IMG/VR virus record: IMGVR_UViG_2778261058_000019
Source: a virus
Taxonomy: Duplodnaviria > Heunggongvirae > Uroviricota > Caudoviricetes
DNA: 15,691 nt
Direction: 5' to 3' (one strand)
Under the pieces are notes generated by a model. It was not told where the DNA came from, ran no database searches, and saw nothing but the letters and a program-made list of their open reading frames with translations. Both the position numbers and the translations under genes were made by a program. Below, one piece after another: positions 1-15,691 of this stretch (position 1 is the stretch's first letter; every line of letters begins with the position of its first letter).

Positions 1-114
1 TGGGTGGACTGGTATAACAATCGACGATTGCTGGAAAGGCTGGGCCATATTCCTCCGGCAGAAGCAGAAAAAGTTTATTATGCTTCCATCAGAAACGATG
101 ATCTGGCAGCCTGA
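1..114 (+). CDS. IS3-family transposase (OrfB/DDE type), C-terminal fragment; 5' end lies outside the window
   Basis: Frame 1 is open from base 1 to TGA at 112-114. Translation WVDWYNNRRLLERLGHIPPAEAEKVYYASIRNDDLAA looks like the C-terminal tail of IS3-family transposases; from memory closest to IS629/IS1203. Not verified by search. Confidence 0.6.
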   Translation, partial: WVDWYNNRRLLERLGHIPPAEAEKVYYASIRNDDLAA

Positions 115-156
115 GTTCACAGATAAAACACTCTCCAGGAAAACCGGGGCGGTTCA
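1..156 (+). mobile_element. Right end of an IS3-family insertion sequence (IS629/IS1203-like), with terminal inverted repeat ending ...GGGGCGGTTCA at 156
   Basis: After the transposase stop, bases 115-156 (GTTCACAGATAAAACACTCTCCAGGAAAACCGGGGCGGTTCA) end in CA as IS3-family termini do and match my recollection of the IS629 terminus. Homology to hokD begins immediately at 157. Confidence 0.5.
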
Positions 157-294
157 ATGTTAATCGCCCTGATCGTCATCTGTTTAACCGTCATAGTGAC
201 GGCACTGGTAACGAGGAAAGACCTCTGCGAGGTACGAATCCGAACCGGCCAGACGGAGGTCGCTGTCTTCACAGCTTACGAACCTGAGGAGTAA
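157..294 (+). CDS. hokD: Hok-family membrane toxin, N-terminally truncated (HokD/RelF residues 7-51)
   Basis: ATG 157 to TAA 292-294 encodes MLIALIVICLTVIVTALVTRKDLCEVRIRTGQTEVAVFTAYEPEE (45 aa), matching HokD as I recall it but without the first six residues MKQQKA. An in-frame stop at 124-126 lies inside the IS end, so no upstream start is available. Below the 60-aa cutoff of the ORF track. Confidence 0.7.
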   Translation: MLIALIVICLTVIVTALVTRKDLCEVRIRTGQTEVAVFTAYEPEE

Positions 295-362
295 GAGACC
301 CGGCGGGGGAGAAATCCCTCGCCACCTCTGATGTGGCAGGCATCCTCAACGCACCCGCACTT

Positions 363-389
363 AACCCGCTTCGGCGGGTTTTTGTTTTT
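363..389 (+). terminator. Rho-independent terminator downstream of hok
   Basis: Hairpin CCCGC-TTCG-GCGGG (365-378) followed by TTTTTGTTTTT. Confidence 0.65.
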
Positions 390-510
390 ATTTTCAACGC
401 GTTTGAAGTTCTGGACGGTGCCGGAATAGAATCAAAAATACTTAAGTAGCGCGCAGGGATAAGAGGGATGGTCCCTTAAAGGGGAGAGCTAATTATCCGG
501 AAGGATTCTG

Positions 511-762
511 ATGATGAACATCGAAGAACTGCGTAAAATTTTTTGTGAAGATGGCCTCTATGCTGTGTGCGTTGAAAATGGAAATCTTGTTAGTCATTAC
601 CGCATTATGTGTTTGCGAAAGAATGGGGCTGCGTTAATTAATTTTGTGGATGCTCGGGTCACGGACGGATTTATCTTGCGCGAAGGTGAGTTTGTCACTT
701 CATTACAGGCATTGAAAGAGATCGGAATAAAAGCTGGCTTTTCTGCTTTTTCAGGAGAATAA
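511..762 (+). CDS. rem: Rem, small prophage protein of unknown function (83 aa)
   Basis: ORF 511..762 with SD GGAAGGA at 499-505 five nt before the ATG. Length 83 aa and position between hokD and ydfU match the K-12 Qin layout from memory. Confidence 0.65.
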   Translation: MMNIEELRKIFCEDGLYAVCVENGNLVSHYRIMCLRKNGAALINFVDARVTDGFILREGEFVTSLQALKEIGIKAGFSAFSGE

Positions 763-828
763 ACTCATCTACAATCTTGCGCGGGGCTGAACTCCCGCTG
801 AGTAACACCGTGCCACCGGAGAAAACCG

Positions 829-1107
829 ATGGCACGCAACGCAAAATATTACAATTCTGATAATTCGCCCGTTCTTGCCTGCACGCACGGGCGGTATTCT
901 CACGCATTCAAGTCTGAATGGTTCCAGCACCCTCCATGCACTGCAGAACAGGCCGAATGGCTGATTCATTCTTACCGCAGGCGCGGGTTCGAGGTTAAGA
1001 AAGCTCTCAGTCTCGACTATCGGCACTGGATAATCTCTGTCAGGCTGCCTTATTCCGAACGCCCACCACGTGCGTCCCGCACTTTCCAGCAACGGATCTG
1101 GAGGTAA
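829..1107 (+). CDS. Hypothetical prophage protein (92 aa), translationally coupled to ydfU
   Basis: ATG 829 is preceded by GGAG at 818-821 (7-nt spacer). Stop TAA 1105-1107 overlaps the SD of the next gene, whose GTG is at 1109. No family recognised from the sequence. Confidence 0.45.
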   Translation: MARNAKYYNSDNSPVLACTHGRYSHAFKSEWFQHPPCTAEQAEWLIHSYRRRGFEVKKALSLDYRHWIISVRLPYSERPPRASRTFQQRIWR

Positions 1108-1108
1108 C

Positions 1109-2158
1109 GTGCGGGTATTACTTAGACCTGTTCTGGTGCCTGAGCTTGGGCTGGTGGTCCTTAAGCCGGGCCGTGAATCCATACAGATATTTCATAATCC
1201 TCGAGTGCTGGTGGAACCGGAACCAAAAAGCATGCGTAATCTGCCATCCGGAGTCGTTCCTGCCGTTCGCCAGCCGCTGGCGGAAGACAAAACATTGCTG
1301 CCGTTTTTTAGTAACGAACGGGTGATTCGTGCTGCTGGCGGCGTTGGCGCATTGTCCGACTGGCTATTACGTCATGTTACATCCTGCCAGTGGCCTAATG
1401 GCGATTACCATCACACTGAAACAGTCATTCACCGTTATGGTACCGGCGCAATGGTGTTGTGCTGGCACTGCGACAACCAACTGCGTGACCAGACATCGGA
1501 ATCACTGGAGCTGCTTGCTCAACAAAATCTGACAGCATGGGTGATTGACGTCATCCGTCACGCAATAAGCGGTACGCAGGAGCGGGAATTATCTTTGGCT
1601 GAATTATCCTGGTGGGCGGTCTGCAATCAGGTGGTGGATGCACTACCTGAGGCTGTATCGCGTCGTTCGCTGGGATTACCAGCGGAAAAAATCTGCTCGG
1701 TGTACCGCGAAAGCGACATCGTACCGGGAGAGCAGACCGCCACCAGCATATTGAAACAACGCACAAAAAATCTTGCACCGTTGCCTTACGCCCACCAGCA
1801 ACAAAAATCACCACAGGAAAAGACGGTGGTAAGCATCACCGTTGATCCAGAGTCTCCGGAATCTTTCATGAAGCTGCCTAAACGTCGCCGCTGGGTTAAG
1901 GAGAAATACACACGTTGGGTTAAGACACAGCCGTGTGCTTGCTGCGGTATGCCAGCCGACGATCCGCATCATCTGATTGGTCACGGGCAGGGCGGAATGG
2001 GAACAAAAGCACATGATCTCTTTGTGTTGCCTTTGTGCAGAAAGCATCACAACGAGCTGCATACGGATACAGTGGCATTTGAAGATAAGTATGGCTCCCA
2101 ACTGGAGCTGATATTTCGTTTTATCGATCGCGCGCTGGCAATTGGCGTACTGGCGTAA
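1109..2158 (+). CDS. ydfU: YdfU-like prophage protein (349 aa) with HNH-like Cys/His motif at the C-terminus
   Basis: Long ORF ending TAA 2156-2158. GTG 1109 follows GGAGG (1100-1104) and gives 349 aa, the length I recall for YdfU; the ORF track begins at an upstream ATG (1070, 362 aa). C-terminus reads CACCGMPADDPHHLIGH...CRKHHNELH. Confidence 0.65.
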   Translation: MRVLLRPVLVPELGLVVLKPGRESIQIFHNPRVLVEPEPKSMRNLPSGVVPAVRQPLAEDKTLLPFFSNERVIRAAGGVGALSDWLLRHVTSCQWPNGDYHHTETVIHRYGTGAMVLCWHCDNQLRDQTSESLELLAQQNLTAWVIDVIRHAISGTQERELSLAELSWWAVCNQVVDALPEAVSRRSLGLPAEKICSVYRESDIVPGEQTATSILKQRTKNLAPLPYAHQQQKSPQEKTVVSITVDPESPESFMKLPKRRRWVKEKYTRWVKTQPCACCGMPADDPHHLIGHGQGGMGTKAHDLFVLPLCRKHHNELHTDTVAFEDKYGSQLELIFRFIDRALAIGVLA

Positions 2159-2171
2159 GTGGAGAACGAGC

Positions 2172-2924
2172 ATGAACCTTGAAGCCTTACCAAAATATTA
2201 CTCCCCAAAATCTCCAAAATTGAGCGATGACGCTCCAGCGACAGGCACCGGTTGTTTAACAATTACGGATGTAATGGCAGCGCAGGGGATGGTGCAGTCG
2301 AAAGCACCACTTGGGTTGGCCTTATTTCTGGCAAAAGTTGGTGTTCAGGACCCTCAGTTTGCGATTGAAGGCCTGCTAAATTACGCGATGGCACTGGATA
2401 ACCCGACATTGAACAAATTGAGTGAAGAAATCCGGTTACAGATTATTCCTTACCTCGTGAGTTTTGCCTTTGCTGATTACTCCAGGTCTGCGGCAAGTAA
2501 GGCTCGCTGTGAGCATTGTTCAGGTACGGGATTTTATAATGTATTGCGCGAAGTGGTGAAACACTACAGACGCGGGGAATCTGTAATCAAGGAAGAATGG
2601 GTGAAGGAACTATGTCAGCATTGCCATGGTAAGGGCGAAGCCAGCACAGCGTGCAGAGGGTGTAAGGGTAAAGGGATTGTTCTGGATGAAAAAAGAACCC
2701 GGTTTCATGGCGTACCGGTATATAAGATTTGTGGGCGTTGTAATGGAAACCGGTTTAGTCGTTTACCGACCACGCTGGCACGACGTCATGTCCAGAAGCT
2801 GGTACCAGACCTGACCGATTATCAGTGGTATAAGGGGTATGCGGACGTCATTGGTAAACTGGTAACAAAGTGCTGGCAGGAAGAAGCATACGCGGAAGCG
2901 CAATTGAGGAAGGTGACGAGATAA
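2172..2924 (+). CDS. quuQ: Late-gene antiterminator Q homolog (250 aa) with four DnaJ-type CxxCxGxG repeats
   Basis: ATG 2172 follows GGAG (2161-2164) and gives 250 aa; the ORF track starts at an in-frame TTG at 2142. It sits just upstream of a promoter-plus-terminator module and the lysis genes, as Q does in lambdoid phages. Cys repeats are CEHCSGTG, CQHCHGKG, CRGCKGKG and CGRCNGN. Confidence 0.7.
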   Translation: MNLEALPKYYSPKSPKLSDDAPATGTGCLTITDVMAAQGMVQSKAPLGLALFLAKVGVQDPQFAIEGLLNYAMALDNPTLNKLSEEIRLQIIPYLVSFAFADYSRSAASKARCEHCSGTGFYNVLREVVKHYRRGESVIKEEWVKELCQHCHGKGEASTACRGCKGKGIVLDEKRTRFHGVPVYKICGRCNGNRFSRLPTTLARRHVQKLVPDLTDYQWYKGYADVIGKLVTKCWQEEAYAEAQLRKVTR

Positions 2925-2955
2925 ATGATTTTTGCTGAAGATGGCGACATGATGT

Positions 2956-2984
2956 TTGCATTTTTCAAAAAATATGGATAAAAT
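2956..2984 (+). promoter_or_regulatory. Candidate Q-dependent late promoter (PR'-like)
   Basis: TTGCAT (2956-2961), 17-bp spacer, TAAAAT (2979-2984), immediately after the Q homolog and about 45 nt before a strong terminator. This is the typical PR'-qut-tR' arrangement; called by eye only. Confidence 0.35.
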
Positions 2985-3030
2985 TTTTTCAACGATGGGC
3001 TTTGTATACCCGACGTTAAGAAAAAGTAGA

Positions 3031-3057
3031 AAACCCGCTGATGAGCGGGTTTTGTGC
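3031..3057 (+). terminator. Rho-independent terminator (tR'-like) after the candidate late promoter
   Basis: Hairpin AACCCGCT-GATG-AGCGGGTT followed by TTTGTGCTTT. Confidence 0.65.
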
Positions 3058-3345
3058 TTTAAATGGGGCAATGGTAATGTTGAATCTCATCCCGGGACTC
3101 ATGTCTGTTAACTTATTATTTAGCTGGTGACTTGGTTATTTGCCTGATGTTTAAAATGTTTTCTTCCAGTACAATGTCCCTAAACACAATGAGTCTGCTT
3201 ATTATATTATTAGCAGAGCTATTACGGCCAAAGTACAGCATAAGCTTTTAAAGCCAATCAACCAGTCATCAAGACAGACGGGGTTATTCATAAAAACTCT
3301 CCATGTGTGATCCGATGGGGCCTGAAATTAAAGCTTTAATATAGC

Positions 3346-3558
3346 TCATGAAAGGTAAACATTGGCAGCTGAAGGGCCACGCAGACCATTTATCCGGCAA
3401 AATTCCACGCGTAATCCGGTGGTAATTTCTTCTGCATCGCGGAGATTGAGCGCTGAAACATGAAGCTGGACATCGATACGACCATCGGATGGGGTGATAA
3501 GACCCTTGCCGCTTTTGCCGTCAAAGGTTTTGACAATTCCTGTCATTTTACGGGACAA
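3346..3558 (-). CDS. cspF: Cold-shock protein CspF (CspA family, 70 aa)
   Basis: Translation [26 protein letters not shown]...[16 protein letters not shown] is a cold-shock domain protein. The first codon is TTG at 3558-3556 with SD AAGGA six nt upstream; the first in-frame ATG (3546) would have an 18-nt spacing. Confidence 0.8.
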
Positions 3559-3858
3559 AAAAATTCCTTAATACTGATAACTTGGCGCACTATACACACG
3601 TTCCTGAAGAAAGCTATAGTTTTTTGATGGGGTTGAAGATGGCTGGATGTCTAAAATAAACATTGCTTCATATGTTCAACTATGCGTTAATGATTGCGTC
3701 GGTTTGAAGAACAGACGATATACGAAGTAGTTTACTAAAGCAGTTCTCATTTCAGGTGTTATTCACTTATTCCTTCTTTGAGTCTCTCCAATTAAGTACG
3801 AAGTCGTTTCTGTTATGCAAACCATTTATGCCGAAAGGCTCAAGTTAAGGAATGTAGA

Positions 3859-4074
3859 ATGTCAAATAAAATGACTGGTTTAGTAAAATGGTTTAACGCT
3901 GATAAAGGTTTCGGCTTTATTTCTCCTGTTGATGGTAGTAAAGATGTGTTTGTGCATTTTTCTGCGATTCAGAATGATAATTATCGAACCTTATTTGAAG
4001 GTCAAAAGGTTACCTTCTCTATAGAGAGTGGTGCTAAAGGTCCTGCAGCAGCAAATGTCATCATTACTGATTAA
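3859..4074 (+). CDS. cspB: Cold-shock protein CspB (CspA family, 71 aa)
   Basis: [38 protein letters not shown]... carries the cold-shock domain RNP motifs KGFGFI and VFVHF. SD AAGGA at 3847-3851, ATG at 3859. Confidence 0.9.
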
Positions 4075-4356
4075 AATTCATCGCTCGTCTGTATACGATA
4101 ACGAAGAAGGCTGATGCCTGAGTAGAGATACGGACAGAGTAGTGAATATTGGATCTCTTTAATAAAAAGTAAGGAGGTCCAATACATGAAACAATGGCTA
4201 GCATATTTGGCAAAATCTTAATCAGGAAAAGTATGCTAACCATTGTGGTGAAGTGCAGGTTTGCTGCATGAATAGTTTTACAGCAGAAGCTAACTGCTGG
4301 CATGGCAAAACAAAGTGCGTAAGTGGATGACTCCCACAAAAAGCACCACAATCTCA

Positions 4357-4378
4357 AACCCGCTCAGGCGGGTTTTTT
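4357..4378. terminator. Rho-independent terminator, probably bidirectional (cspB transcript and the convergent zinc-ribbon gene)
   Basis: Hairpin AACCCGC-TCAG-GCGGGTT followed by TTTTTT on the + strand, with an A-run upstream that gives a U-run on the - strand. Confidence 0.65.
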
Positions 4379-4437
4379 ATTATCTGCTTTAAATATATTA
4401 TTAAAATATAAAAAATACTTGTTACTAATAAAATCAA

Positions 4438-4608
4438 TCAGGCTACAGCTTTAAGATTTGTCTGGAATACTTTGTTGCAATGAGGGCAGATCAAAAGGGC
4501 ACCTTTTTGTACTCTTGAAAAACTGTGTTCTGACTCTTGGGTGCAGTTTGGGCAGGAACATTTAACGAGATAATTACGGCGTGATTTTGAGTTTTTACGT
4601 TCTGACAT
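4438..4608 (-). CDS. ynfU: Small zinc-ribbon protein (56 aa; CxCxxC...CxxC)
   Basis: ATG at 4608-4606 is preceded by AGGA about 8 nt upstream. Product MSERKNSKSRRNYLVKCSCPNCTQESEHSFSRVQKGALLICPHCNKVFQTNLKAVA. The track's 73-aa version starts at an upstream ATG with no SD. The symbol ynfU (56-aa zinc-binding protein in Qin) is from memory and is uncertain. Confidence 0.5.
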   Translation of the reverse strand: MSERKNSKSRRNYLVKCSCPNCTQESEHSFSRVQKGALLICPHCNKVFQTNLKAVA

Positions 4609-4827
4609 AGGCTTTTCCTGTATAAATGGCCGTATACAGTACACTAAATATGAAAACATTTCTCGTATTATTATTTTATATATGACTTTCTTTCAAAATA
4701 ATTACCCACATTTTTAATGTGTATGTTTTTTTAGCGCCGTTGAGAACAACGTGTGCTGTCAAAACTACCCCGTAGACTCCGATCTTTTCAAACATATTGC
4801 ACCATCCGTGTACATCGGGGTGAGGAT

Positions 4828-5043
4828 ATGAAATCAATGGATAAGTTAACAACAGGTGTTGCCTATGGCACATCGGCGGGTAATGCTGGTTTCTGGGCAT
4901 TGCAGTTACTCGATAAAGTAACTCCGTCACAGTGGGCTGCAATCGGTGTGCTGGGTAGCCTGGTTTTTGGCCTGCTGACGTATCTGACAAATCTTTATTT
5001 CAAGATTAAAGAAGACAGGCGTAAGGCTGCGAGAGGAGAGTAA
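4828..5043 (+). CDS. essQ: Class II pinholin, S21-like (71 aa), with dual-start motif MKSM
   Basis: [71 protein letters not shown] closely resembles the phage 21 pinholin as I recall it. Met1 and Met4 give the holin/antiholin dual start. A GGGGTGAGGA SD precedes; the ORF track starts 25 codons upstream at an ATG with no SD. Confidence 0.85.
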
Positions 5044-5047
5044 TCCA

Positions 5048-5355
5048 ATGACTCAAGACTATGAACTGGTTGTGAAAGGAGTCCGTAATTTTGAGAATAA
5101 AGTTACGGTAACTGTAGCCTTACAGGACAAAGAACGCTTTGACGGTGAAATTTTTGACCTGGATGTCGCCATGGACCGTGTTGAAGGAGCTGCGCTGGAG
5201 TTTTATGAGGCAGCAGCCAGAAGGAGCGTCCGGCAAGTCTTCCTGGAAGTAGCAGAAAAATTGTCAGAAAAAGTTGAGTCTTATCTGCAGCATCAGTACT
5301 CCTTTAAGATTGAAAATCCTGCCAATAAGCACGAGCGTCCTCATCATAAATATCT

Positions 5356-5359
<4 letters not shown>
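5048..5359 (+). CDS. ydfR: YdfR-like protein (103 aa) inserted between holin and endolysin
   Basis: ORF with strong SD GAGAGGAGAG (5031-5040); stop TGA 5357-5359 overlaps the endolysin ATG (ATGA). Function unknown. Confidence 0.7.
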
Positions 5360-6383
<1,024 letters not shown>

Positions 6384-6609
6384 GGTAATATTAAATCGGA
6401 ACATTTACATCGCGGAATGTAAAATTTAAATAAAAAGGACTCTTCCATGAGCCAAAATTCCTGAAATCTTAAGGGTAAGATAAAAGGTCTTAATCAGAAT
6501 GACACGTTTTATTAATAAATAAAGCTATTCTTTCATTGCTGTGTTTTTCTTTACAAAAGTAATCCTTGCTATGGGTGGTTAATCATGCGTTAATGGTGTT
6601 CTGGTTTGT

Positions 6610-6642
6610 TACAAATTTATCTGAAGCAGTCATTGTTATAAT
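6610..6642 (+). promoter_or_regulatory. Candidate cspI promoter (perfect -10 TATAAT at 6637-6642, weak -35, AT-rich upstream)
   Basis: TATAAT lies about 100 nt upstream of the cspI ATG, consistent with the long 5' UTRs of cspA-family genes. Called by eye; low confidence. Confidence 0.3.
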
Positions 6643-6745
6643 TTTATTATTTGTACCTCTTGAGATTTCCTTGTTGGTTTTTCTCTCTGATATTTTTTTT
6701 CGGACCATTCTGCCCAAGGGCTAATTTCTTCAAAAGGTAATAATT

Positions 6746-6958
6746 ATGTCTAACAAAATGACTGGTTTAGTGAAATGGTTTAACCCTGAAAAAGGTTTTG
6801 GTTTCATCACGCCGAAAGATGGCAGCAAAGATGTGTTTGTCCATTTCTCAGCAATTCAGAGCAACGATTTCAAAACATTAACTGAGAATCAGGAAGTTGA
6901 ATTTGGTATTGAGAACGGACCTAAAGGTCCTGCCGCTGTTCATGTAGTGGCGCTTTGA
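6746..6958 (+). CDS. cspI: Cold-shock protein CspI (CspA family, 70 aa)
   Basis: [38 protein letters not shown]... is a cold-shock domain protein and a close paralog of the cspB copy at 3859. Confidence 0.9.
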
Positions 6959-7163
6959 GGTAGACAATATTACAAACCATATTCACTTTAGATGCCCGTG
7001 TTGTCATGGTTCCCAGTATAGAACATCATCTTTTGATGTTTCTGACATGAATCCTTTCGGGGCAAAATGTATCTTTTGTAAATCAATGATGATTACATTT
7101 GATAATATTTCACAATACTTAAATGCCAGCCGTCTGTCGTTGGATTTAAAAAAGTGAAAATGA

Positions 7164-7186
7164 AGGCTCCTTCGGGAGCTTTTTTG
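7164..7186 (+). terminator. Rho-independent terminator ending the cspI transcript
   Basis: Hairpin GCTCC-TTCG-GGAGC followed by TTTTTT, about 200 nt after the cspI stop and right after the stop of a small Cys-rich reading frame. Confidence 0.65.
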
Positions 7187-7304
7187 CTTGGTGTCTATTC
7201 GATGGATACTCACATACTACGGTAACATCATGAAAAAAATCATAGTTTTTTTTAACTCTGAACCAGCAGTGGTAGTGCCAGCGATGACTGGAGTTAACAC
7301 CATC

Positions 7305-7460
7305 ATGCGTGAATATCCAAATGGCGAAAAAACACACCTTACTGTAATGGCCGCAGGGTTTCCATCTCTGACCGGAGATCATAAAGTCATTTATGTAGCC
7401 GCGGATCGACATGTTACTTCAGAAGAAATTCTGGAAGCAGCAATAAGGCTCTTGAGTTGA
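7305..7460 (+). CDS. ynfN: YnfN-like small protein (51 aa from ATG 7305; a 76-aa form from ATG 7230 is possible)
   Basis: ORF ending TGA 7458-7460. GGAG at 7290-7293 precedes ATG 7305, giving the 51 aa I recall for YnfN. In-frame upstream ATGs at 7284 and 7230 cannot be excluded. Confidence 0.45.
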   Translation: MREYPNGEKTHLTVMAAGFPSLTGDHKVIYVAADRHVTSEEILEAAIRLLS

Positions 7461-7554
7461 TTTGATGCTATTGCATTGATAATTCAGGAAAATTCTCTTT
7501 GTCTGTTTGTGTAAAATTTAGACTATCGTATGTTGATTATTGCGATGTTTCATC

Positions 7555-7583
7555 TTATCTTTTACACGTTTGCACCATATAAT
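7555..7583 (+). promoter_or_regulatory. Candidate sigma-70 promoter for gnsB
   Basis: TTATCT (7555-7560), 17-bp spacer, perfect TATAAT (7578-7583), about 50 nt upstream of the gnsB ATG. Confidence 0.4.
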
Positions 7584-7631
7584 CGACTTACTGTGTAACT
7601 GGAAAGTCATAACAGACTAAAAGAGGAAATG

Positions 7632-7804
7632 ATGAATATTGAAAACTTAAAAACAAAAGCAGAAGCAGATATTTCTGAATATATAACAAAAAAATTATTG
7701 AACTTAAGAAAAAGACCGGGAAAGAAGTTACCAGTATTCAGTTTACCGCACGGGAAAAAATGACGGGTCTTGAAAGCTATGATGTCAAGATTAATTTAAT
7801 CTGA
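7632..7804 (+). pseudogene. gnsB: gnsB (GnsA/GnsB family), disrupted by a -1 frameshift in an A7 tract
   Basis: From ATG 7632 the frame reads MNIENLKTKAEADISEYITKK, then runs through the A-run at 7688-7694 to a stop at 7761-7763 (43 aa). The next frame continues IIELKKKTGKEVTSIQFTAREKMTGLESYDVKINLI to TGA 7802-7804. Joined, the two parts align without gaps to the 57-aa GnsA/GnsB pattern as I recall it, which needs A8 rather than A7. Confidence 0.6.
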
Positions 7805-7833
7805 TGTATTCAATAATAAAATTTATCCATAAA

Positions 7834-7856
7834 CCTCGTTTTTACGGGGTTTTGTT
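7834..7856 (+). terminator. Weak rho-independent terminator after gnsB
   Basis: Hairpin CCTCG-TTTTTA-CGGGG (one G-U pair) followed by TTTTGTT. Confidence 0.4.
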
Positions 7857-7955
7857 ATATTTGAATGGTTCCGAATATCTAAATCACAATTGTTGATGGT
7901 TTTTATTAAACCAATGCAGTCCGGCTCAGGAGTGAGAGAAGCCGGACGTTATGGT

Positions 7956-8366
7956 TTAGCGTGGTAAGATCTGTGTAGTTTTCTGGATGCTTTCAGTAAA
8001 TAGTAATGAATTATCAAAGGTATAGTAATATCTTTTTTGTTCGTGGATATTTGTAACCCACCGAAAAACTCCTGCTTTAGCAAGGTTTCTTCTGTATTCC
8101 TGAAATGTGATCTCTCTGGATTTCAGCTTATTAGAGGTCGTTTCTATAAGATGCCTATCCTTTGAAAATTTGACAGACACAATGTTTTTTAGGCCCTTTA
8201 ATAACACTGTATTATCATTTTTTAATACAATATGAACATTCTCTGTGGCTAAATAGTAAATGTAATGTGAGACATTGTGACGTTTTAGCTCAGAATAAAA
8301 CCATTGATAGTTTAAATCGTTTCGAACTTTATCAAATATTTGTTTAAAAATGACTACCTGATCCAT
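7956..8366 (-). CDS. ydfO: YdfO-like protein (DUF1398-type, 136 aa)
   Basis: Minus-strand ORF. ATG at 8366-8364 is preceded by GGAAGG about 7 nt upstream and gives 136 aa (MDQVVIFKQ...); the track's 141-aa start at 8381 has no SD. A stem-loop at 7919-7947 lies just past the stop. Confidence 0.65.
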
Positions 8367-8423
8367 AGATAAACCTTCCATGTGATATGAGGGGGCGTAG
8401 TCTGCACGATTATCTAAATTGCT

Positions 8424-8657
8424 TCAATCTGGTCTGACCTGTTTTCTGAGCAATTCAGTAATGTCACTCTTTTCTTTGTTTGCTTCAGAAGAAACTCTTT
8501 TTTCTGAGCACAGTCTCCGGCGGCAGGCTTCAATGACCCAGGCTGAGAAATTCCCGGACCCTTTTTGCTCAAGAGCGATGTTAATTTGTTCAATCATTTG
8601 GTTAGGAAAGCGGATGTTGCGGGTTGTTGTTCTGCGGGTTCTGTTCTTCGTTGACAT
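8424..8657 (-). CDS. ynfO: YnfO-like small protein (77 aa), predicted ribbon-helix-helix DNA-binding fold
   Basis: Minus-strand ORF 57 nt upstream of ydfO on the same strand. Arg-rich N-terminus, then NIRFPNQMIEQINIALEQKG...NFSAWVIEACRRRL, which looks like a strand-helix-helix (Arc/CopG-like) pattern. Fold assignment is inference. Confidence 0.6.
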   Translation of the reverse strand: MSTKNRTRRTTTRNIRFPNQMIEQINIALEQKGSGNFSAWVIEACRRRLCSEKRVSSEANKEKSDITELLRKQVRPD

Positions 8658-8829
8658 GAGGTTGCCCCGTATTCAGTGTCGCTGATTTGTATTGTCTGAA
8701 GTTGTTTTTACGTTAAGTTGATGCAGATCAATTAATACGATACCTGCGTCATAATTGATTATTTGACGTGGTTTGATGGCCTCCACGCACGTTGTGATAT
8801 GTAGATGATAATCATTATCACTTTACGGG

Positions 8830-9040
8830 TCCTTTCCGGTGATCCGACAGGTTACGGGGCGGCGACCTCGCGGGTTTTCGCTATTTATGAAAATTTTCCG
8901 GTTTAAGGCATTTCCGTTCTTCTTCGTCGTAACTTAATGTTTTTATTTAAAATACCCCCTGAAAAGAAAGGAAACGACAGGTGCTGAAAACGAGCTTTTG
9001 GGCCTCTGTCGTTTCCTTTCTCTGTTTTTGGCCGTGGAAT
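8830..9040 (+). other. Lambda-type cos site (cosQ-cosN-cosB); 12-nt cohesive end GGGCGGCGACCT at 8857-8868
   Basis: Bases 8841-8880 read GATCCGACAGGTTACG|GGGCGGCGACCTCGCGGGTTTTCG, the fused right and left ends of phage lambda as I recall them. The roughly 170 bp upstream also resemble the lambda right end, and the downstream region leads into Nu1. Confidence 0.85.
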
Positions 9041-9045
9041 GAACA

Positions 9046-9591
9046 ATGGAAGTCAACAAAAAGCAGCTGGCTGACATTTTCGGTGCGAGTATCCGTACCA
9101 TTCAGAACTGGCAGGAACAGGGAATGCCCGTTCTGCGAGGCGGTGGCAAGGGTAATGAGGTGCTTTATGACTCTGCCGCCGTTATAAGATGGTATGCCGA
9201 AAGGGATGCTGAAATTGAGAACGAAAAGCTGCGCCGGGAAGTTGAAGAACTGCGGCAGGCCAGCGAGACAGATCTCCAGCCAGGGACTATTGAGTACGAA
9301 CGCCATCGACTTACGCGTGCGCAGGCCGACGCACAGGAGCTGAAAAATGCCAGAGACTCCGCTGAAGTGGTGGAAACCGCATTCTGTACTTTCGTGCTGT
9401 CGCGGATCGCAGGTGAAATTGCCAGTATTCTCGACGGGATCCCCCTGTCGGTGCAGCGGCGTTTTCCGGAACTGGAAAACCGACATGTTGATTTCCTGAA
9501 ACGGGATATCATCAAAGCCATGAACAAAGCAGCCGCGCTGGATGAACTGATACCGGGGTTGCTGAGTGAATATATCGAACAGTCAGGTTAA
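9046..9591 (+). CDS. nohQ: Terminase small subunit Nu1 homolog (181 aa), apparently full length
   Basis: MEVNKKQLADIFGASIRTIQNWQEQGMPVLRGGGKGNEVLYDSAAVIRWYAERDAEIEN... is essentially lambda gpNu1 with its N-terminal helix-turn-helix. The 3' end overlaps the start of the terminase A reading frame as in lambda. Symbol by analogy with Qin (nohA/nohQ). Confidence 0.85.
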   Translation: MEVNKKQLADIFGASIRTIQNWQEQGMPVLRGGGKGNEVLYDSAAVIRWYAERDAEIENEKLRREVEELRQASETDLQPGTIEYERHRLTRAQADAQELKNARDSAEVVETAFCTFVLSRIAGEIASILDGIPLSVQRRFPELENRHVDFLKRDIIKAMNKAAALDELIPGLLSEYIEQSG

Positions 9592-11242
9592 CAGGCTGCG
9601 GCATTTTGTCCGCGCCGGGCTTCGCTCACTGTTCAGGCCGGAGCCACAGACCGCCGTTGAATGGGCGGATGCTAATTACTATCTCCCGAAAGAATCCGCA
9701 TACCAGGAAGGGCGCTGGGAAACACTGCCCTTTCAGCGGGCCATCATGAATGCGATGGGCAGCGACTACATCCGTGAGGTGAATGTGGTGAAGTCTGCCC
9801 GTGTCGGTTATTCCAAAATGCTGCTGGGTGTTTATGCCTACTTTATAGAGCATAAGCAGCGCAACACCCTTATCTGGTTGCCGACGGATGGTGATGCCGA
9901 GAACTTTATGAAAACCCACGTTGAGCCGACCATCCGCGATATTCCGTCGCTGCTGGCGCTGGCTCCGTGGTATGGCAAAAAGCACCGGGATAACACGCTC
10001 ACTATGAAGCGTTTTTCCAATGGTCGTGGCTTCTGGTGCCTGGGCGGTAAAGCGGCAAAAAACTACCGTGAAAAGTCGGTGGATGTGGCGGGTTATGATG
10101 AACTTGCTGCCTTTGATGAGGATATTGAACAGGAAGGCTCTCCGACGTTCCTTGGCGACAAACGTATTGAAGGCTCGGTCTGGCCAAAGTCCATCCGTGG
10201 CTCCACGCCCAAAGTGAGAGGCACCTGCCAGATTGAGCGTGCAGCCAGTGAATCCCTGCATTTTATGCGTTTTCATGTTGCCTGCCCGCACTGCGGGGAG
10301 GAGCAGTATCTTAAATTTGGCGACAAAGAGACGCCGTTTGGCCTCAAATGGACGCCGGATGACCCCTCTAGCGTGTTTTATCTCTGCGAGCATAATGCCT
10401 GCGTCATCCGCCAGCAGGAGCTGGACTTTACTGATGCCCGTTATATCTGCGAAAAGACCGGGATCTGGACCCGTGATGGCATTCTCTGGTTTTCGTCATC
10501 CGGTGAAGAGATTGAGCCGCCGGACAGTGTGACCTTTCACATCTGGACGGCGTACAGCCCGTTCACCACCTGGGTGCAGATTGTCAAAGACTGGATGAAG
10601 ACGAAAGGGGATACGGGAAAACGTAAAACCTTCGTGAACACCACGCTCGGTGAGACATGGGAAGCGAAAATCGGCGAACGTCCGGATGCTGAGGTGATGG
10701 CGGAGCGGAAAGAGCATTATTCAGCGCCCGTTCCTGACCGTGTGGCTTACCTGACCGCCGGTATCGACTCCCAGCTGGACCGCTACGAAATGCGCGTATG
10801 GGGATGGGGGCCGGGTGAGGAAAGCTGGCTGATTGACCGGCAGATTATTATGGGTCGCCACGACGATGAACAGACGCTGCTGCGTGTGGATGAGGCCATC
10901 AATAAAACCTATACCCGCCGGAATGGTGCAGAAATGTCGGTATCCCGTATCTGCTGGGATACTGGCGGGATTGACCCGACCATTGTGTATGAACGCTCGA
11001 AAAAACATGGGCTGTTCCGGGTGATCCCCATTAAAGGGGCATCCGTCTACGGAAAGCCGGTGGCCAGCATGCCACGTAAGCGAAACAAAAACGGGGTTTA
11101 CCTTACCGAAATCGGTACGGATACCGCGAAAGAGCAGATTTATAACCGCTTCACACTGACGCCGGAAGGGGATGAACCGCTTCCCGGTGCCGTTCACTTC
11201 CCGAATACCCGAAACTTGCAGTTGCTTATCCGTCAGGCGTGA
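9566..11242 (+). pseudogene. Terminase large subunit (gpA-like), 3'-truncated by a deletion; 558 codons with a short out-of-frame tail
   Basis: GTG 9566 starts MNISNSQVNRLRHFVRAGLRSLFRPEPQTAVEWADANYYLPKES..., which follows lambda gpA (641 aa) as I recall it up to ...LPGAVHFPN near 11207. The frame then reads [11 protein letters not shown] and stops at 11240-11242, so the C-terminal ~90 residues of gpA are missing. Confidence 0.85.
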
Positions 11243-11808
11243 TCCCTGATATGCGTGGCTGGACGATTAAGGGCAAGCCCGCCAGTGGTCGGGCCGTATT
11301 ATCTCAGGAACAGGACGGCATTAAATCGCACACCCACAGCGCCAGCGCATCCAGTACGGATTTGGGGACGAAAACCACATCGTCGTTTGATTACGGAACC
11401 AAATCCACGAATAACACCGGGGCGCATACCCATAGTATTAGCGGGACCGCAAATAGTGCCGGTGCGCACCAACACAAGAGTTCCGGTGCATTTGGTGGCA
11501 CGAACACGAGCATTTTCCCTAATGGTTATACCGCGATTTCAAATCTAAGCGCGGGGATTATGAGCACAACAAGCGGTAGTGGCCAGATTCGTAATGCAGG
11601 GAAGACATCATCAGATGGTGCTCATACCCACTCGCTGTCCGGCACTGCTGCAAGCGCAGGCGCACATGCACATACTGTCGGTATTGGTGCTCATACGCAC
11701 TCCGTTGCGATTGGTTCACATGGACACACCATCACCGTTAACGCTGCTGGTAACGCGGAAAACACCGTCAAAAACATCGCATTTAACTATATTGTGAGGC
11801 TTGCATAA
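11239..11808 (+). CDS. stfQ: Side tail fiber protein (Stf-like), C-terminal fragment (up to 189 aa) with GAHTHS-type repeats
   Basis: This frame is open from 11176 and already reads [28 protein letters not shown]... across the junction. The first possible starts are GTG 11239 and ATG 11251, with no clear SD. His/Gly/Ala-rich repeats (GAHTHS, GAHQH, GAHAH) are typical of lambda-type side tail fiber C-termini. May be an unexpressed remnant. Confidence 0.6.
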
Positions 11809-12383
11809 TGGCATTCAGAATGAGTGAACAACCACGGACCATAAAAATTTATAATCTGCTGGCCGGAACTAATGAATTTATTGGTGAAGGTGATGCATAT
11901 ATTCCGCCTCATACAGGTCTGCCAGCAAACAGTACCGATATTGCACCGCCAGATATTCCGGCTGGCTTCGTGGCTGTTTTCAACAGTGATGAGTCATCGT
12001 GGCATCTCGTTGAAGATCATCGGGGTAAAACGGTTTATGACGTGGCTTCCGGCGACGCGTTATTTATTTCTGAACTCGGTCCGTTACCGGAAAATGTTAC
12101 CTGGTTATCGCCGGAAGGGGAGTTTCAGAAGTGGAACGGCACAGTCTGGGTGAAGGATACGGAAGCAGAAAAACTGTTCCGGATCCGGGAGGCGGAAGAA
12201 ACAAAAAACAACCTGATGCAGGTAGCCAGTGAGCATATTGCGCCGCTTCAGGATGTTGCAGATCTGGAAATTGCAACGGAGGAAGAAATCTCGTTGCTGG
12301 AAGCATGGAAAAAGTATCGGGTATTGCTGAACCGTGTTGATACGTCAACTGCACAGGATATTGAATGGCCAGCACTGCCGTAG
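11808..12383 (+). CDS. tfaQ: Tail fiber assembly protein (lambda Tfa-like, 191 aa)
   Basis: ATG overlaps the stf stop (TAATG). [54 protein letters not shown]... matches lambda Tfa as I recall it. Confidence 0.85.
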
Positions 12384-12480
12384 GGTAAAACATATAAATT
12401 CTATAATTAGATGTATCTTTCCATTTACGGCAAGGAAGGGGGCTTGGAAGACGTAAAGCATCTCACACCGAGATTATTTT

Positions 12481-13071
12481 TTATATGTCAGGTGTCTGAA
12501 GTTTTGCTTTGGCTCTTAAAATGGTTTGCCGCGAGGTTTTGAATTCCCGGGCAATGGCACTTATACTTACACCTGACTTAATTCGTTCGAATACCGCCTG
12601 TTTCTGTTCTTCATTTAACACAGGTGGTCGACCAAAACGTTTCCCTGCGCCGCGGGCTCTTACTATCCCGGAATGAGTGCGTTCAAGTAAAAGGTCTCGT
12701 TCAAATTCAGCGACTGCTGAAATTACTTGCATCATCATTTTTCCTGTTGGACTGGTCAGGTCAATGCCCCCCAATGCTAAGCAATGCACTCTGATACCTG
12801 TTTCGGTCAGTTGTTCCACTGTTTTCCTGATATCCATTGCATTACAACCAAGGCGATCCAGTTTTGTCACAATCAATTGATCACCACATTTCAGGCGAGC
12901 AAGCAACCGGTTAAAACCAGGACGCTCACTGGTTGCTGCTGAGCCGCTAATGTGTTCTTCGATTATTTGCTGAGGTTTGATTTTAAAACCTGCACTTTCG
13001 ATTTCCCGGCGTTGATTTTCGGTGGTCTGATCCAGCGTTGATATCCGACAGTAAGCAAAAATTTGAGACAT
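12481..13071 (-). CDS. pinQ: Serine recombinase (resolvase/invertase family, 196 aa)
   Basis: Minus-strand [23 protein letters not shown]... has the N-terminal catalytic serine motif (YCRISTLDQ), [14 protein letters not shown] and a C-terminal HTH. Position beside stf/tfa is that of Pin-type invertases. Confidence 0.8.
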
Positions 13072-13387
13072 AGTGAGACTCTATACGAAATTGGTGTTCA
13101 TATCATAATGCATCTCAGAAAATAATTATGATTATTTTTGTGCATATTTGTATGTACACGTTCGAAAATAAACGAATGCGTATGCAACCCCGTAATTTTG
13201 GTGAGACCCAAAATCGATTTTGTGAAAAATGGCTTTAACTCGGTTTGTTTTTCGAGTTCCGGGCGGACTCAAGGAAGAAGAATAGTGTTGCGTGTTATTT
13301 TAACCAGATTTCAAGTTGTTTGGTCGTGGAAAAGTGGAGCAAAATGTTGTTAAAGTGGAAAAATGATAAAAAAGTAAGTTTATTATA

Positions 13388-13621
13388 TTACATTTTACCA
13401 TTTAAATTTTGGTTGTCTTTAAGAACTGATATCGCTGTTTGTAATAATTCTTTGTTATCCAGCCATGATTTTTTCTTTATGTTTCCTTCAATGTAATCAA
13501 GCAATGTTCTGGTATTGATAGGTCTTCCCTGTTTTGCTACTTCCACTACAGCATCCCCTAGGATAATTCTTACTTCAGGAAGCTGCGCAGGGAACCACTT
13601 TAGGGTGTCTTTTGATTTCAT
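13388..13621 (-). CDS. ydfK: YdfK-like small protein (77 aa)
   Basis: Minus-strand ORF; the 77-aa form starts MKSKDTLKWFPAQLPEV... at ATG 13621-13619, and the track's 88-aa form starts 11 codons upstream. Lies between pinQ and the prophage/host boundary as in Qin and Rac (ynaE paralog). Confidence 0.65.
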   Translation of the reverse strand: MKSKDTLKWFPAQLPEVRIILGDAVVEVAKQGRPINTRTLLDYIEGNIKKKSWLDNKELLQTAISVLKDNQNLNGKM

Positions 13622-14407
13622 GAAGATATTCCTTAAAATATTATTGATTTTCATTGCGATATTGTATGTCTGATTCAGGATATGTTGACTTATACATCGG
13701 TTTTGTCTGGGTTATTGGATATGCCAATCCCTAATTTTATTAGGGCATGACTAAAAATGCTGAATATGATAAGGAGAGATGTGATTATCAGTATGCTGTT
13801 CATATAGCCTCGAATTAGTAATGTGTTATATATGATATAGTTGACAATTTTTATCTTGGGTGTTCTTAAAGTTCGTAGATAAACATTGTCGTTTCAGGTA
13901 TACAGGAATGCTAACAGGTGGCAGCAAAAATCAGGCGGTTTATGGCGCAAGCTGAAGCGGCAACTGCAAACTATCTTATGTAGAGACTCTACACGGATTG
14001 GGTTTAAAAGTATACATAGATAACAGTTTTTATCTGAAAAAGAAAAATATCAAGGTGATATAGCCTATATGCCTTTGATGCGGAGGAATGAATGTGATGG
14101 GAGTGATGTATCTGAATAGTTGAAAAACCGCAGACACGCCTTATGCAAGAACGTGCTGCGATTGGCTGGTAAATTTTTCGATAGTGTGAGTATTGAATGA
14201 TTTCCAGCCGTTCTTGATTTTACGCATAAATCCATGAAAAAACTACTTATCTGTTGGGGAGTTTTTTTGGGGCATATATGGGACAGAAATAGGCCCCAGA
14301 TAGACACTGAGATCGAACTTAGGATGCTTTTTAAAAAAATGCAACTATCTGAAAAAACCTAGAAAACGCCAAGGAAACCACAGGATGGGAAAAAACACCT
14401 GTGAATT

Positions 14408-15691
14408 ATGGATTTCCAGTTATATTCGCTCGGCGCAGCGTTAGTGTTTCATGAAATATTTTTTCCTGAATCATCAACGGCAATGGCGTTAATTCTGGCA
14501 ATGGGAACCTACGGTGCAGGTTATGTGGCGCGTATTGTCGGAGCATTTATTTTCGGCAAAATGGGCGACAGAATAGGGCGTAAAAAAGTGCTCTTTATTA
14601 CCATCACCATGATGGGGATCTGTACCACCTTAATTGGTGTGTTACCGACCTATGCACAGATTGGTGTTTTTGCACCCATCTTGCTGGTGACGTTGCGTAT
14701 TATTCAGGGGTTGGGTGCAGGTGCGGAAATTTCCGGTGCCGGTACGATGCTGGCGGAATATGCGCCAAAAGGTAAGCGCGGAATTATCTCCTCATTTGTG
14801 GCTATGGGAACTAACTGCGGAACCTTGAGCGCAACGGCAATCTGGGCCTTTATGTTCTTCATTCTCAGTAAAGAGGAACTGCTGGCGTGGGGATGGCGTA
14901 TACCGTTCCTGGCGAGCGTTGTCGTGATGGTCTTTGCTATCTGGTTGCGTATGAATCTGAAAGAAAGCCCGGTCTTTGAGAAGGTTAACGACAGTAACCA
15001 ACCGACAGCAAAACCTGCACCTGCTGGTAGCATGTTCCAGAGCAAATCCTTCTGGCTGGCAACAGGGCTGCGTTTTGGTCAGGCGGGTAACTCCGGGTTA
15101 ATTCAGACTTTCCTTGCAGGCTATTTAGTGCAGACGTTATTGTTTAACAAAGCAATTCCAACAGATGCATTGATGATCAGTTCGATTCTCGGCTTTATGA
15201 CCATTCCGTTCCTTGGTTGGTTATCCGATAAAATTGGTCGCCGGATCCCGTATATTATTATGAATACCTCCGCGATTGTGCTGGCATGGCCAATGCTTTC
15301 TATCATTGTAGATAAAAGCTATGCCCCGAGCACCATTATGGTTGCACTGATTGTGATTCATAACTGTGCGGTGCTGGGATTATTTGCTCTGGAAAACATT
15401 ACCATGGCAGAAATGTTCGGCTGTAAAAACCGCTTTACCCGGATGGCTATTTCTAAAGAAATTGGTGGTCTTATCGCTTCCGGTTTTGGTCCTATCCTGG
15501 CGGGTATTTTCTGCACCATGACGGAATCCTGGTATCCGATCGCCATTATGATCATGGCATATTCAGTAATTGGTTTAATCTCTGCGCTGAAAATGCCAGA
15601 GGTGAAAGACCGTGATTTAAGTGCGCTGGAAGACGCTGCGGAAGATCAACCGCGTGTTGTAAGAGCTGCGCAACCTTCCAGAAGTCTGTAA
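14408..15691 (+). CDS. ydfJ: MFS transporter (metabolite:H+ symporter type), N-terminally truncated at the prophage/host junction (427 codons)
   Basis: ORF starts MDFQLYSLGAALVFHEIFFPESS... and carries the MFS signature GKMGDRIGRKKVLF. It begins at the conserved DFxLYG motif, which in full-length homologs follows the first transmembrane helix, so about 25-30 N-terminal residues are missing. An in-frame stop sits two codons upstream of the ATG. Confidence 0.75.
   Translation: MDFQLYSLGAALVFHEIFFPESSTAMALILAMGTYGAGYVARIVGAFIFGKMGDRIGRKKVLFITITMMGICTTLIGVLPTYAQIGVFAPILLVTLRIIQGLGAGAEISGAGTMLAEYAPKGKRGIISSFVAMGTNCGTLSATAIWAFMFFILSKEELLAWGWRIPFLASVVVMVFAIWLRMNLKESPVFEKVNDSNQPTAKPAPAGSMFQSKSFWLATGLRFGQAGNSGLIQTFLAGYLVQTLLFNKAIPTDALMISSILGFMTIPFLGWLSDKIGRRIPYIIMNTSAIVLAWPMLSIIVDKSYAPSTIMVALIVIHNCAVLGLFALENITMAEMFGCKNRFTRMAISKEIGGLIASGFGPILAGIFCTMTESWYPIAIMIMAYSVIGLISALKMPEVKDRDLSALEDAAEDQPRVVRAAQPSRSL

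Follow-up and report, generated by a model that had tools for sequence, protein, structure and literature searches.

The window, as the whole stretch of 15,691 nucleotides analysed here is called, carries an element that sequence comparison identifies as the cryptic prophage Qin of Escherichia coli, with a relic packaging module. Window 157-9574 is 99.96% identical to Qin of E. coli K-12 MG1655 (9.4 kb) and, on the other side of a deletion, window 11205-15691 is 99.8% identical to it. The gene order is hokD-rem-ydfU-ydfT-cspF-cspB-essQ-ydfR-rrrQ-rzpQ-cspI-gnsB-ydfO-ynfO-cos-nohA-stf'-tfaQ-pinQ-ydfK-ydfJ, the flanking genes being the same as in MG1655 Qin, and matching annotated genes in three E. 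coli genomes bear out the assignment to this prophage. A complete cos of lambda specificity spans window 8827-9022 and is followed by a full-length homologue of Nu1, a truncated large terminase gene, a side-tail-fibre remnant and tfaQ. The features discussed below are the following (coordinates, strand, description).

8738-8840, no strand: candidate lambda-type conversion tract of 103 bp, its right end 16 bp short of the cosN nick
8827-8833, plus strand: cosQ, GGGTCCT, within the 60-bp stretch left of the nick that matches lambda exactly
8855-8870, plus strand: cosN, made up of the 12-nt cohesive-end sequence (8857-8868) and 2 bp to either side
8871-8905, plus strand: cosN-to-R3 spacer including the I2 segment, 100% identical to lambda
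8906-8921, plus strand: cosB R3, lambda bp 50-65, with G54A at window 8910
8930-8942, minus strand: cosB I1, the IHF site, bp 74-86, identical to lambda and 434
8964-8979, minus strand: cosB R2, inverted relative to R3 and R1, identical to lambda
9007-9022, plus strand: cosB R1, identical to lambda
9046-9591, plus strand: nohA, small terminase Nu1 homologue, 181 aa, full length
9566-11242, plus strand: truncated large terminase A', gpA residues 1-547 of 641
11205-11211, no strand: A'/stf' deletion junction, 7-bp microhomology
11239-12383, plus strand: side-tail-fibre C-terminus remnant (a 189-aa ORF out of frame with A') and intact tfaQ

The cos region was aligned to lambda (in its DE3 record), to phage 434, to two other phages and to several E. 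coli loci, lambda bp n corresponding to window position 8856+n. The DE3 record labels the same 12 bp as 'cos site', and the 434 record labels R3, I1, R2 and R1. Relative to lambda/DE3, the 60 bp left of the nick and bp 1-53 to its right are 100% identical, and the similarity to lambda amounts to 98.1% over 2,716 bp, which excludes a chance resemblance. The alignment therefore agrees with the initial annotation, which had read this region as the joined ends of a lambda-type genome with the 12-nt cohesive sequence and a downstream cosB. The cohesive-end sequence itself, GGGCGGCGACCT, is found at 8857-8868 as a single copy in the window, which places the nicks at 8856|8857 on the top strand and at 8868|8869 on the bottom strand, in agreement with the positions (8856/8868) that had been predicted. 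cosN is defined as 16 bp in the literature and is delimited accordingly here. Termination of packaging requires a further subsite, cosQ, which lies at 48473-48479 in lambda. Both the distance between cosN and cosB and the I2 segment have been reported as important, and since the spacer at 8871-8905 is 100% identical to that of lambda this critical spacing is kept. To the right of it, the cosB subsites R3-I1-R2-R1 follow one another in the order, orientation and spacing seen in lambda, with no indel relative to either lambda(DE3) or 434. Nu1 starts at bp 190 in the DE3, 434 and Qin sequences. The classical lambda reference places this start at bp 191 and has one G more between R2 and R1; this additional base, near lambda bp 138 (window about 8990-9000), is a known single-base discrepancy of the old reference, and it leaves the spacing comparison unaffected. 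A scan for promoters and terminators near cos returned nothing exceeding shuffle expectation.

The gene next to cos is named nohA in RefSeq at the corresponding K-12 Qin locus (b1548) and in near-identical loci. Its product matches the Pfam profile Phage_Nu1 (PF07471) with 336.7 bits over positions 1-164 of 164, and it has both the N-terminal winged-HTH domain and the C-terminal gpA-binding region of Nu1, so that the claim of a complete Nu1 gene stands. NohA differs from lambda Nu1 at three residues (K48R, A75T and L132I), none of which lies in the recognition helix (residues 17-24) or the wing (residues 31-39), leaving the DNA-binding domain unchanged. On the opposite strand, a 179-aa ORF (8947-9486, minus strand) lies antisense to nohA and probably just reflects the composition of the Nu1 coding strand.

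A close relative of this module outside Qin is found in PhiR42_1 (PV340562.1), a deposited complete lambdoid phage whose cosB is identical to that of the window from bp 1 to the Nu1 start and whose Nu1 gene is 100% identical to nohA at the nucleotide level. Positions 1-5611 of PhiR42_1 are 99.7% identical to window 5601-11210 (rrrQ through A), its late region being of the Qin type (rrrQ, rzpQ, cspI, ynfN, gnsB, a ydfO-like gene, ynfO, cos, Nu1 and A), and the module is thus also present in a structurally complete deposited phage. Unlike the window, PhiR42_1 has a complete A, after which come W, B and other structural genes, and over the 100 bp to the left of cosN its haplotype is not that of lambda. 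The phage may be a living relative of the ancestor of Qin, or it may have acquired the module from a Qin prophage. A literature search found no paper describing the PhiR phages.

This relative bears directly on the question of whether the Qin cos is competent. Relative to lambda, cosB of the window has six differences (bp 54, 73, 102, 134, 144 and 175), of which only that at bp 54 (G to A, window 8910) falls within an R sequence. R3 comprises bp 50-65, TerS contacts the segment bp 55-63, and R3 mutations that affect packaging are known at bp 56, 58 and 59 (Murialdo and Feiss, PMC9026076). In the window, bp 55-65 of R3 match lambda, which leaves G54A as the sole change in R3; bp 56, 58 and 59 are unchanged, and bp 54, a conserved position across the three R sequences of lambda, lies just outside the contact segment. 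The base at bp 73, which adjoins I1, is G, as it is in 434, DLP12, PhiR34_1 and PhiR42_1. All six differences are present in PhiR42_1 and five of the six also in 434 and PhiR34_1, and since PhiR42_1 combines them with a nucleotide-identical Nu1 they provide no argument against function. A disabling effect of G54A on cos was considered and rejected, because the same base occurs in cosB of PhiR42_1 and bp 54 is outside the contact segment. We infer the neutrality of G54A from PhiR42_1, for whose viability the evidence is its GenBank record. The initial annotation had proposed that mutated R sites would count against its reading, and although G54A is formally such a mutation, the fact that it is shared with PhiR42_1 means that competence is not refuted. 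Indeed, with a cosB/Nu1 pair that is that of PhiR42_1, and with differences from lambda Nu1 that lie outside the recognition helix and the wing, the terminase of a helper of lambda specificity should recognise the Qin cos.

Downstream of nohA, 85% of the large terminase gene A survives, which had been overlooked in the initial annotation. A' follows gpA up to residue 547 (with four substitutions in this part), continues for 11 junction-derived residues and then reaches a stop. Its ATPase domain is complete, while GpA_nuclease is matched only as far as position 236 of its 294, and A' lacks gpA residues 548-641, including the C-terminal part that docks on the portal (C-terminal portal tethers of gpA have been described in the literature), so that A' is not a complete TerL. 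Genes from W to the N-terminus of lom are deleted from Qin, and a fragment of stf and tfaQ are the only virion-related genes remaining; pinQ has survived as well. The view that all virion structural genes have been lost therefore holds for W to J, which are absent, but not for the stf fragment and tfaQ, which remain together with A' and pinQ. That the element is unable to package itself is, on the other hand, borne out, because there are no head or tail genes and A' lacks its C-terminus. Within the 3' part of tfaQ there is a full-length match to the Rfam IS009 RNA (12151-12349, 220 bits).

Comparison with other Qin loci (deletion coordinates compared: window 11205-11211, locus L008 12558-15598 and locus L004 about 5840) indicates how this state was reached. 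The allele of strain MLI105 is less decayed, with nohA, a near-complete A fused to lom', a full stf and tfaQ, and relative to this type the window has a deletion of 3,041 bp. K-12 has a separate deletion of 4,327 bp, in which the last 5 codons of nohA are replaced and all of A is gone. Judging from these junctions, separate, nested deletions distinguish the Qin alleles, the ancestral order having been nohA, an A-lom' fusion, stf and tfaQ. The K-12-type junction was found in 371 complete E. coli genomes, whereas the exact A'/stf' junction of the window occurs in 0 of 5,426. At the left end, an IS3-family insertion sequence cuts hokD in the hok/sok-relBE region of Qin, and window 1-156 is its 3' end, with the C-terminus of the transposase and the terminal repeat; this 156/157 junction is likewise absent from complete E. 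coli genomes, although both of its parts occur there. The two unique junctions suggest that the window comes from a lineage, possibly an IS-rich one, outside the complete-genome set.

The novelty of the locus is limited. Qin of K-12 MG1655, with cos at about 1,636,556 and packaging directed toward lower coordinates, matches the window base for base in cos and is identical to it from 460 bp left of cosN to nohA codon 176; it differs from the window in having no A, where the window keeps nohA intact and gpA residues 1-547, and in lacking the IS3-family insertion in hokD. Since K-12 Qin carries an identical cos and an annotated nohA, the feature is already known, and nothing about it is categorically new: only this deletion allele is novel, and trivially so. 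What had been singled out as notable is thus real, but it is the long-annotated nohA/cos region of Qin. The cos region is matched in 4,634 of 5,426 complete E. coli genomes (about 85%), with a median of two places per genome, so that chromosomal cos sites of the lambda type are present in most E. coli genomes. The K-12-type allele accounts for about 738 records at at least 99% identity. The flanking genes ynfO and ydfO are common to active PhiR42_1-like prophages, and would confound counts of cos/nohA retention.

That NohA is full length with its gpA-binding C-terminus intact, and that A' retains the N-terminal and ATPase domains without the portal-docking end, raises the question of whether cos, NohA and A' might together act as an anti-phage decoy that titrates or poisons terminases of lambda specificity, e.g. 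through mixed NohA/gpA or Nu1/A' complexes incapable of portal docking. Persistence of cos and nohA in three independent deletion alleles would be in keeping with such a role. However, it seems difficult to reconcile with the good growth of lambda on K-12, where the same cos occurs together with an almost complete nohA, and with the finding that nu1 of DLP12 simply substitutes for lambda nu1, yielding viable phage (De Paepe et al.). Moreover, the absence of the A' allele from all 5,426 genomes indicates that it is not a selected, widespread form, and we consider a decoy function extremely improbable.

Among known systems, a close parallel within K-12 is the cos-nohD-aaaD' segment of DLP12 (cos near MG1655 position 580,645), another defective prophage with a cos of lambda specificity, a full Nu1 homologue and a truncated A. 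Its cos patch is 97.8% identical to the window over 1,379 bp, but it lies at another chromosomal site, has cosB variants at bp 53, 85 and 186-187 rather than at bp 54, and its A is truncated much earlier than A' of the window. Compared with lambda itself, cosQ, cosN, I2, I1, R2 and R1 are identical, and the order, orientation and spacing are the same, the differences being the six cosB substitutions, the 3 aa in Nu1, the A gene cut at 547 and the missing W-to-J genes. The cos-type PICIs (e.g. EcCICFT073) resemble Qin in having no virion genes of their own, a lambda-like cosQ/cosN and a need for helper terminase. Unlike Qin, however, they excise and replicate, are sized for packaging and hijack the lambda or phi80 terminase without cosB R sequences, Rpp taking the place of TerS and redirecting the helper TerS. 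Membership of this class was considered and rejected, as the gene beside cos is Nu1 and not rpp, R sequences are present, and there is no int/rep in the window.

A possible trace of past exchange with phages at the Qin cos lies in the sequence immediately to its left. A table of variable sites across 8397-9606, comparing the window and K-12 with MLI105, WP2-S18 and PhiR42_1, revealed that all 11 differences from other Qin alleles fall in 8738-8840, and that the window (like K-12) has the lambda base at 11/11 of these sites. On both flanks the window follows the Qin/PhiR42_1 haplotype wherever lambda differs. The 8738-8840 segment thus has the appearance of gene conversion with a lambda-like phage, with cos as the anchor. 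Such a tract could have been left when terminase cut the cos in the chromosome and the break was repaired from a lambda-like phage, although it could alternatively have arisen by ordinary homologous recombination without a cut at cos, and the transfer could have been from lambda to Qin or the reverse. Its position suggests that the Qin cos has served as a point of recombination with lambda-like phages.

The anatomy of the site is complete and agrees with that of lambda and PhiR42_1. Taken together with the tract, this makes it probable that the Qin cos can be nicked by a lambda-type helper, with recombination as the main outcome and defective transduction as a rare one. During growth of a phage with a lambda-type terminase, the Nu1 of that phage would assemble with IHF on the Qin cosB, and gpA would nick cosN within the chromosome, causing a double-strand break. 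The break would stimulate homologous exchange of Qin with the phage, the products being hybrid phages with late, lysis, cos and Nu1 segments of Qin, or gene conversion of Qin. Rightward translocation from the cut (through nohA, A', tfaQ, pinQ, ydfJ and onward) may also begin, but with no downstream cos packaging would not be properly ended, and transducing particles would be rare, defective and docL-like. In the case of lambda qin111, Espion and colleagues are said to have found in 1983 that the Q-S-R region of Qin had been rescued into lambda. The DLP12 equivalent provides a documented example of exchange at such a site, since lambda-DLP12 recombinants are about 100-fold commoner than recombinants at the tail-fibre homologies of Rac or Qin, and 10 of 19 lambda-DLP12 junctions adjoin cos (De Paepe et al.). 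Breaks at cos were found to stimulate recombination to the left of cos, this side being the recombinogenic one because terminase protects the right side (De Paepe et al.); the 8738-8840 tract lies on this left side. The late region of PhiR42_1, 99.7% identical to that of Qin, likewise speaks for exchange of the module with a structurally complete phage.

An opposing view would be that the site is an inert fossil, in which cos has been kept merely by recent decay and the chance position of deletion ends, is hardly ever cut, and has a neighbouring tract that stems from ordinary recombination and is unrelated to it. Independent nested deletions with microhomology junctions are indeed typical of neutral decay, K-12 is already without the nohA C-terminus and the entire A, and at least one genome matches only to about 8744, suggesting that there are alleles without cos. 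Against this, every cos subsite is intact, the cosB/Nu1 pair is that of PhiR42_1, and there is no known means by which terminase could tell the Qin cos from a phage cos; the DLP12 equivalent is a recombination hot spot, and 11/11 allele differences cluster directly beside cosN. An inert site therefore appears unlikely. If the Qin cos is instead a site of cutting and recombination, as favoured here, any terminase of lambda specificity should cut chromosomal cos sites of this kind, to judge from their sequence. Such sites would then be built-in recombination hot spots, through which the late modules of cryptic prophages circulate among live phages. The importance of the present locus as a discovery is nonetheless small, exchange with lambda having already been demonstrated for the DLP12 equivalent.

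A more ambitious proposal is that the lone Qin cos is a helper-dependent origin of packaging, from which a superinfecting or induced lambdoid phage would start at 8857 and take about 48 kb of prophage and host DNA to the right into infectious particles, at a frequency relevant to gene transfer. It draws on the intact cos and cosB, whose specificity fits lambda-type terminases, and on the literature, according to which initiation of packaging requires only cosN and cosB. As a precedent, there are the docL particles of lambda, for which packaging sets out from a cos in the chromosome and continues to the right into host DNA although no terminal cos is present; packaging in situ from the cos of an unexcised prophage is said to have been described by Sternberg and Weisberg in 1975 and by Sternberg in 1986. 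The docL case would differ from Qin in that a complete lambda prophage provided its own proteins, where Qin would depend on a separate helper. The difficulty lies in the terminal cut, which requires a downstream cosQ/cosN: for a cos-type terminase, DNA left uncut and protruding from the head blocks tail attachment. There is only one cosN in the window, a second cos having been sought, without success, over the 6.8 kb downstream; in K-12, where cos is identical, no cosQ-cosN-like site was found 11-61 kb downstream in the direction of packaging, where the bare 12-mer gave only four chance matches with 2 mismatches. A packageable cos-to-cos unit was thus found neither in the window nor in the K-12 downstream region. 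Nor is the element mobile, since excision of Qin is undetectable (intQ being inactive, and a pseudogene in K-12) and, so far as is known, it does not replicate.

The content of phage particles points in the same direction. Sequencing of virus-like particles from a lambda lysate of K-12 gave coverage almost solely of lambda plus or minus 25 kb, although the Qin locus was not singled out in these data and tailless particles may drop out in purification. These purified lambda particles came from a K-12 lysogen (reads in ENA PRJEB33536), and detection extended to about 10^-4 of phage coverage, flanking DNA being still visible at ~10,000-fold below the prophage region. The suggestion that flanking prophage and host DNA could be mobilised by a helper thus survives in part: the helper terminase should recognise the site, but there is no second cos, no excision and almost no outside DNA in lambda particles. 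Cutting is therefore plausible, productive export of flanking DNA is unlikely, and we regard a packaging origin that works at a relevant frequency as quite improbable.

Still more demanding would be an in situ origin comparable to lateral transduction, ecologically relevant and exporting up to about 50 kb, in which case the survival of cos and nohA in at least three independent deletion alleles would be a product of selection for this or some related role. The K-12 stretch rightward of nohA includes marRAB, the lsr operon and hipBA. If packaging in situ were efficient, transduction of the lateral type would be extended to cos phages, but the present evidence points in the opposite direction, and we hold this version to be very improbable. 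Elsewhere in the window, two matches to the Rfam cspA thermoregulator (3698-4090, 158.8 bits; 6600-6985, 112.8 bits) cover the cold-shock genes cspB and cspI of the prophage together with sequence upstream of them.
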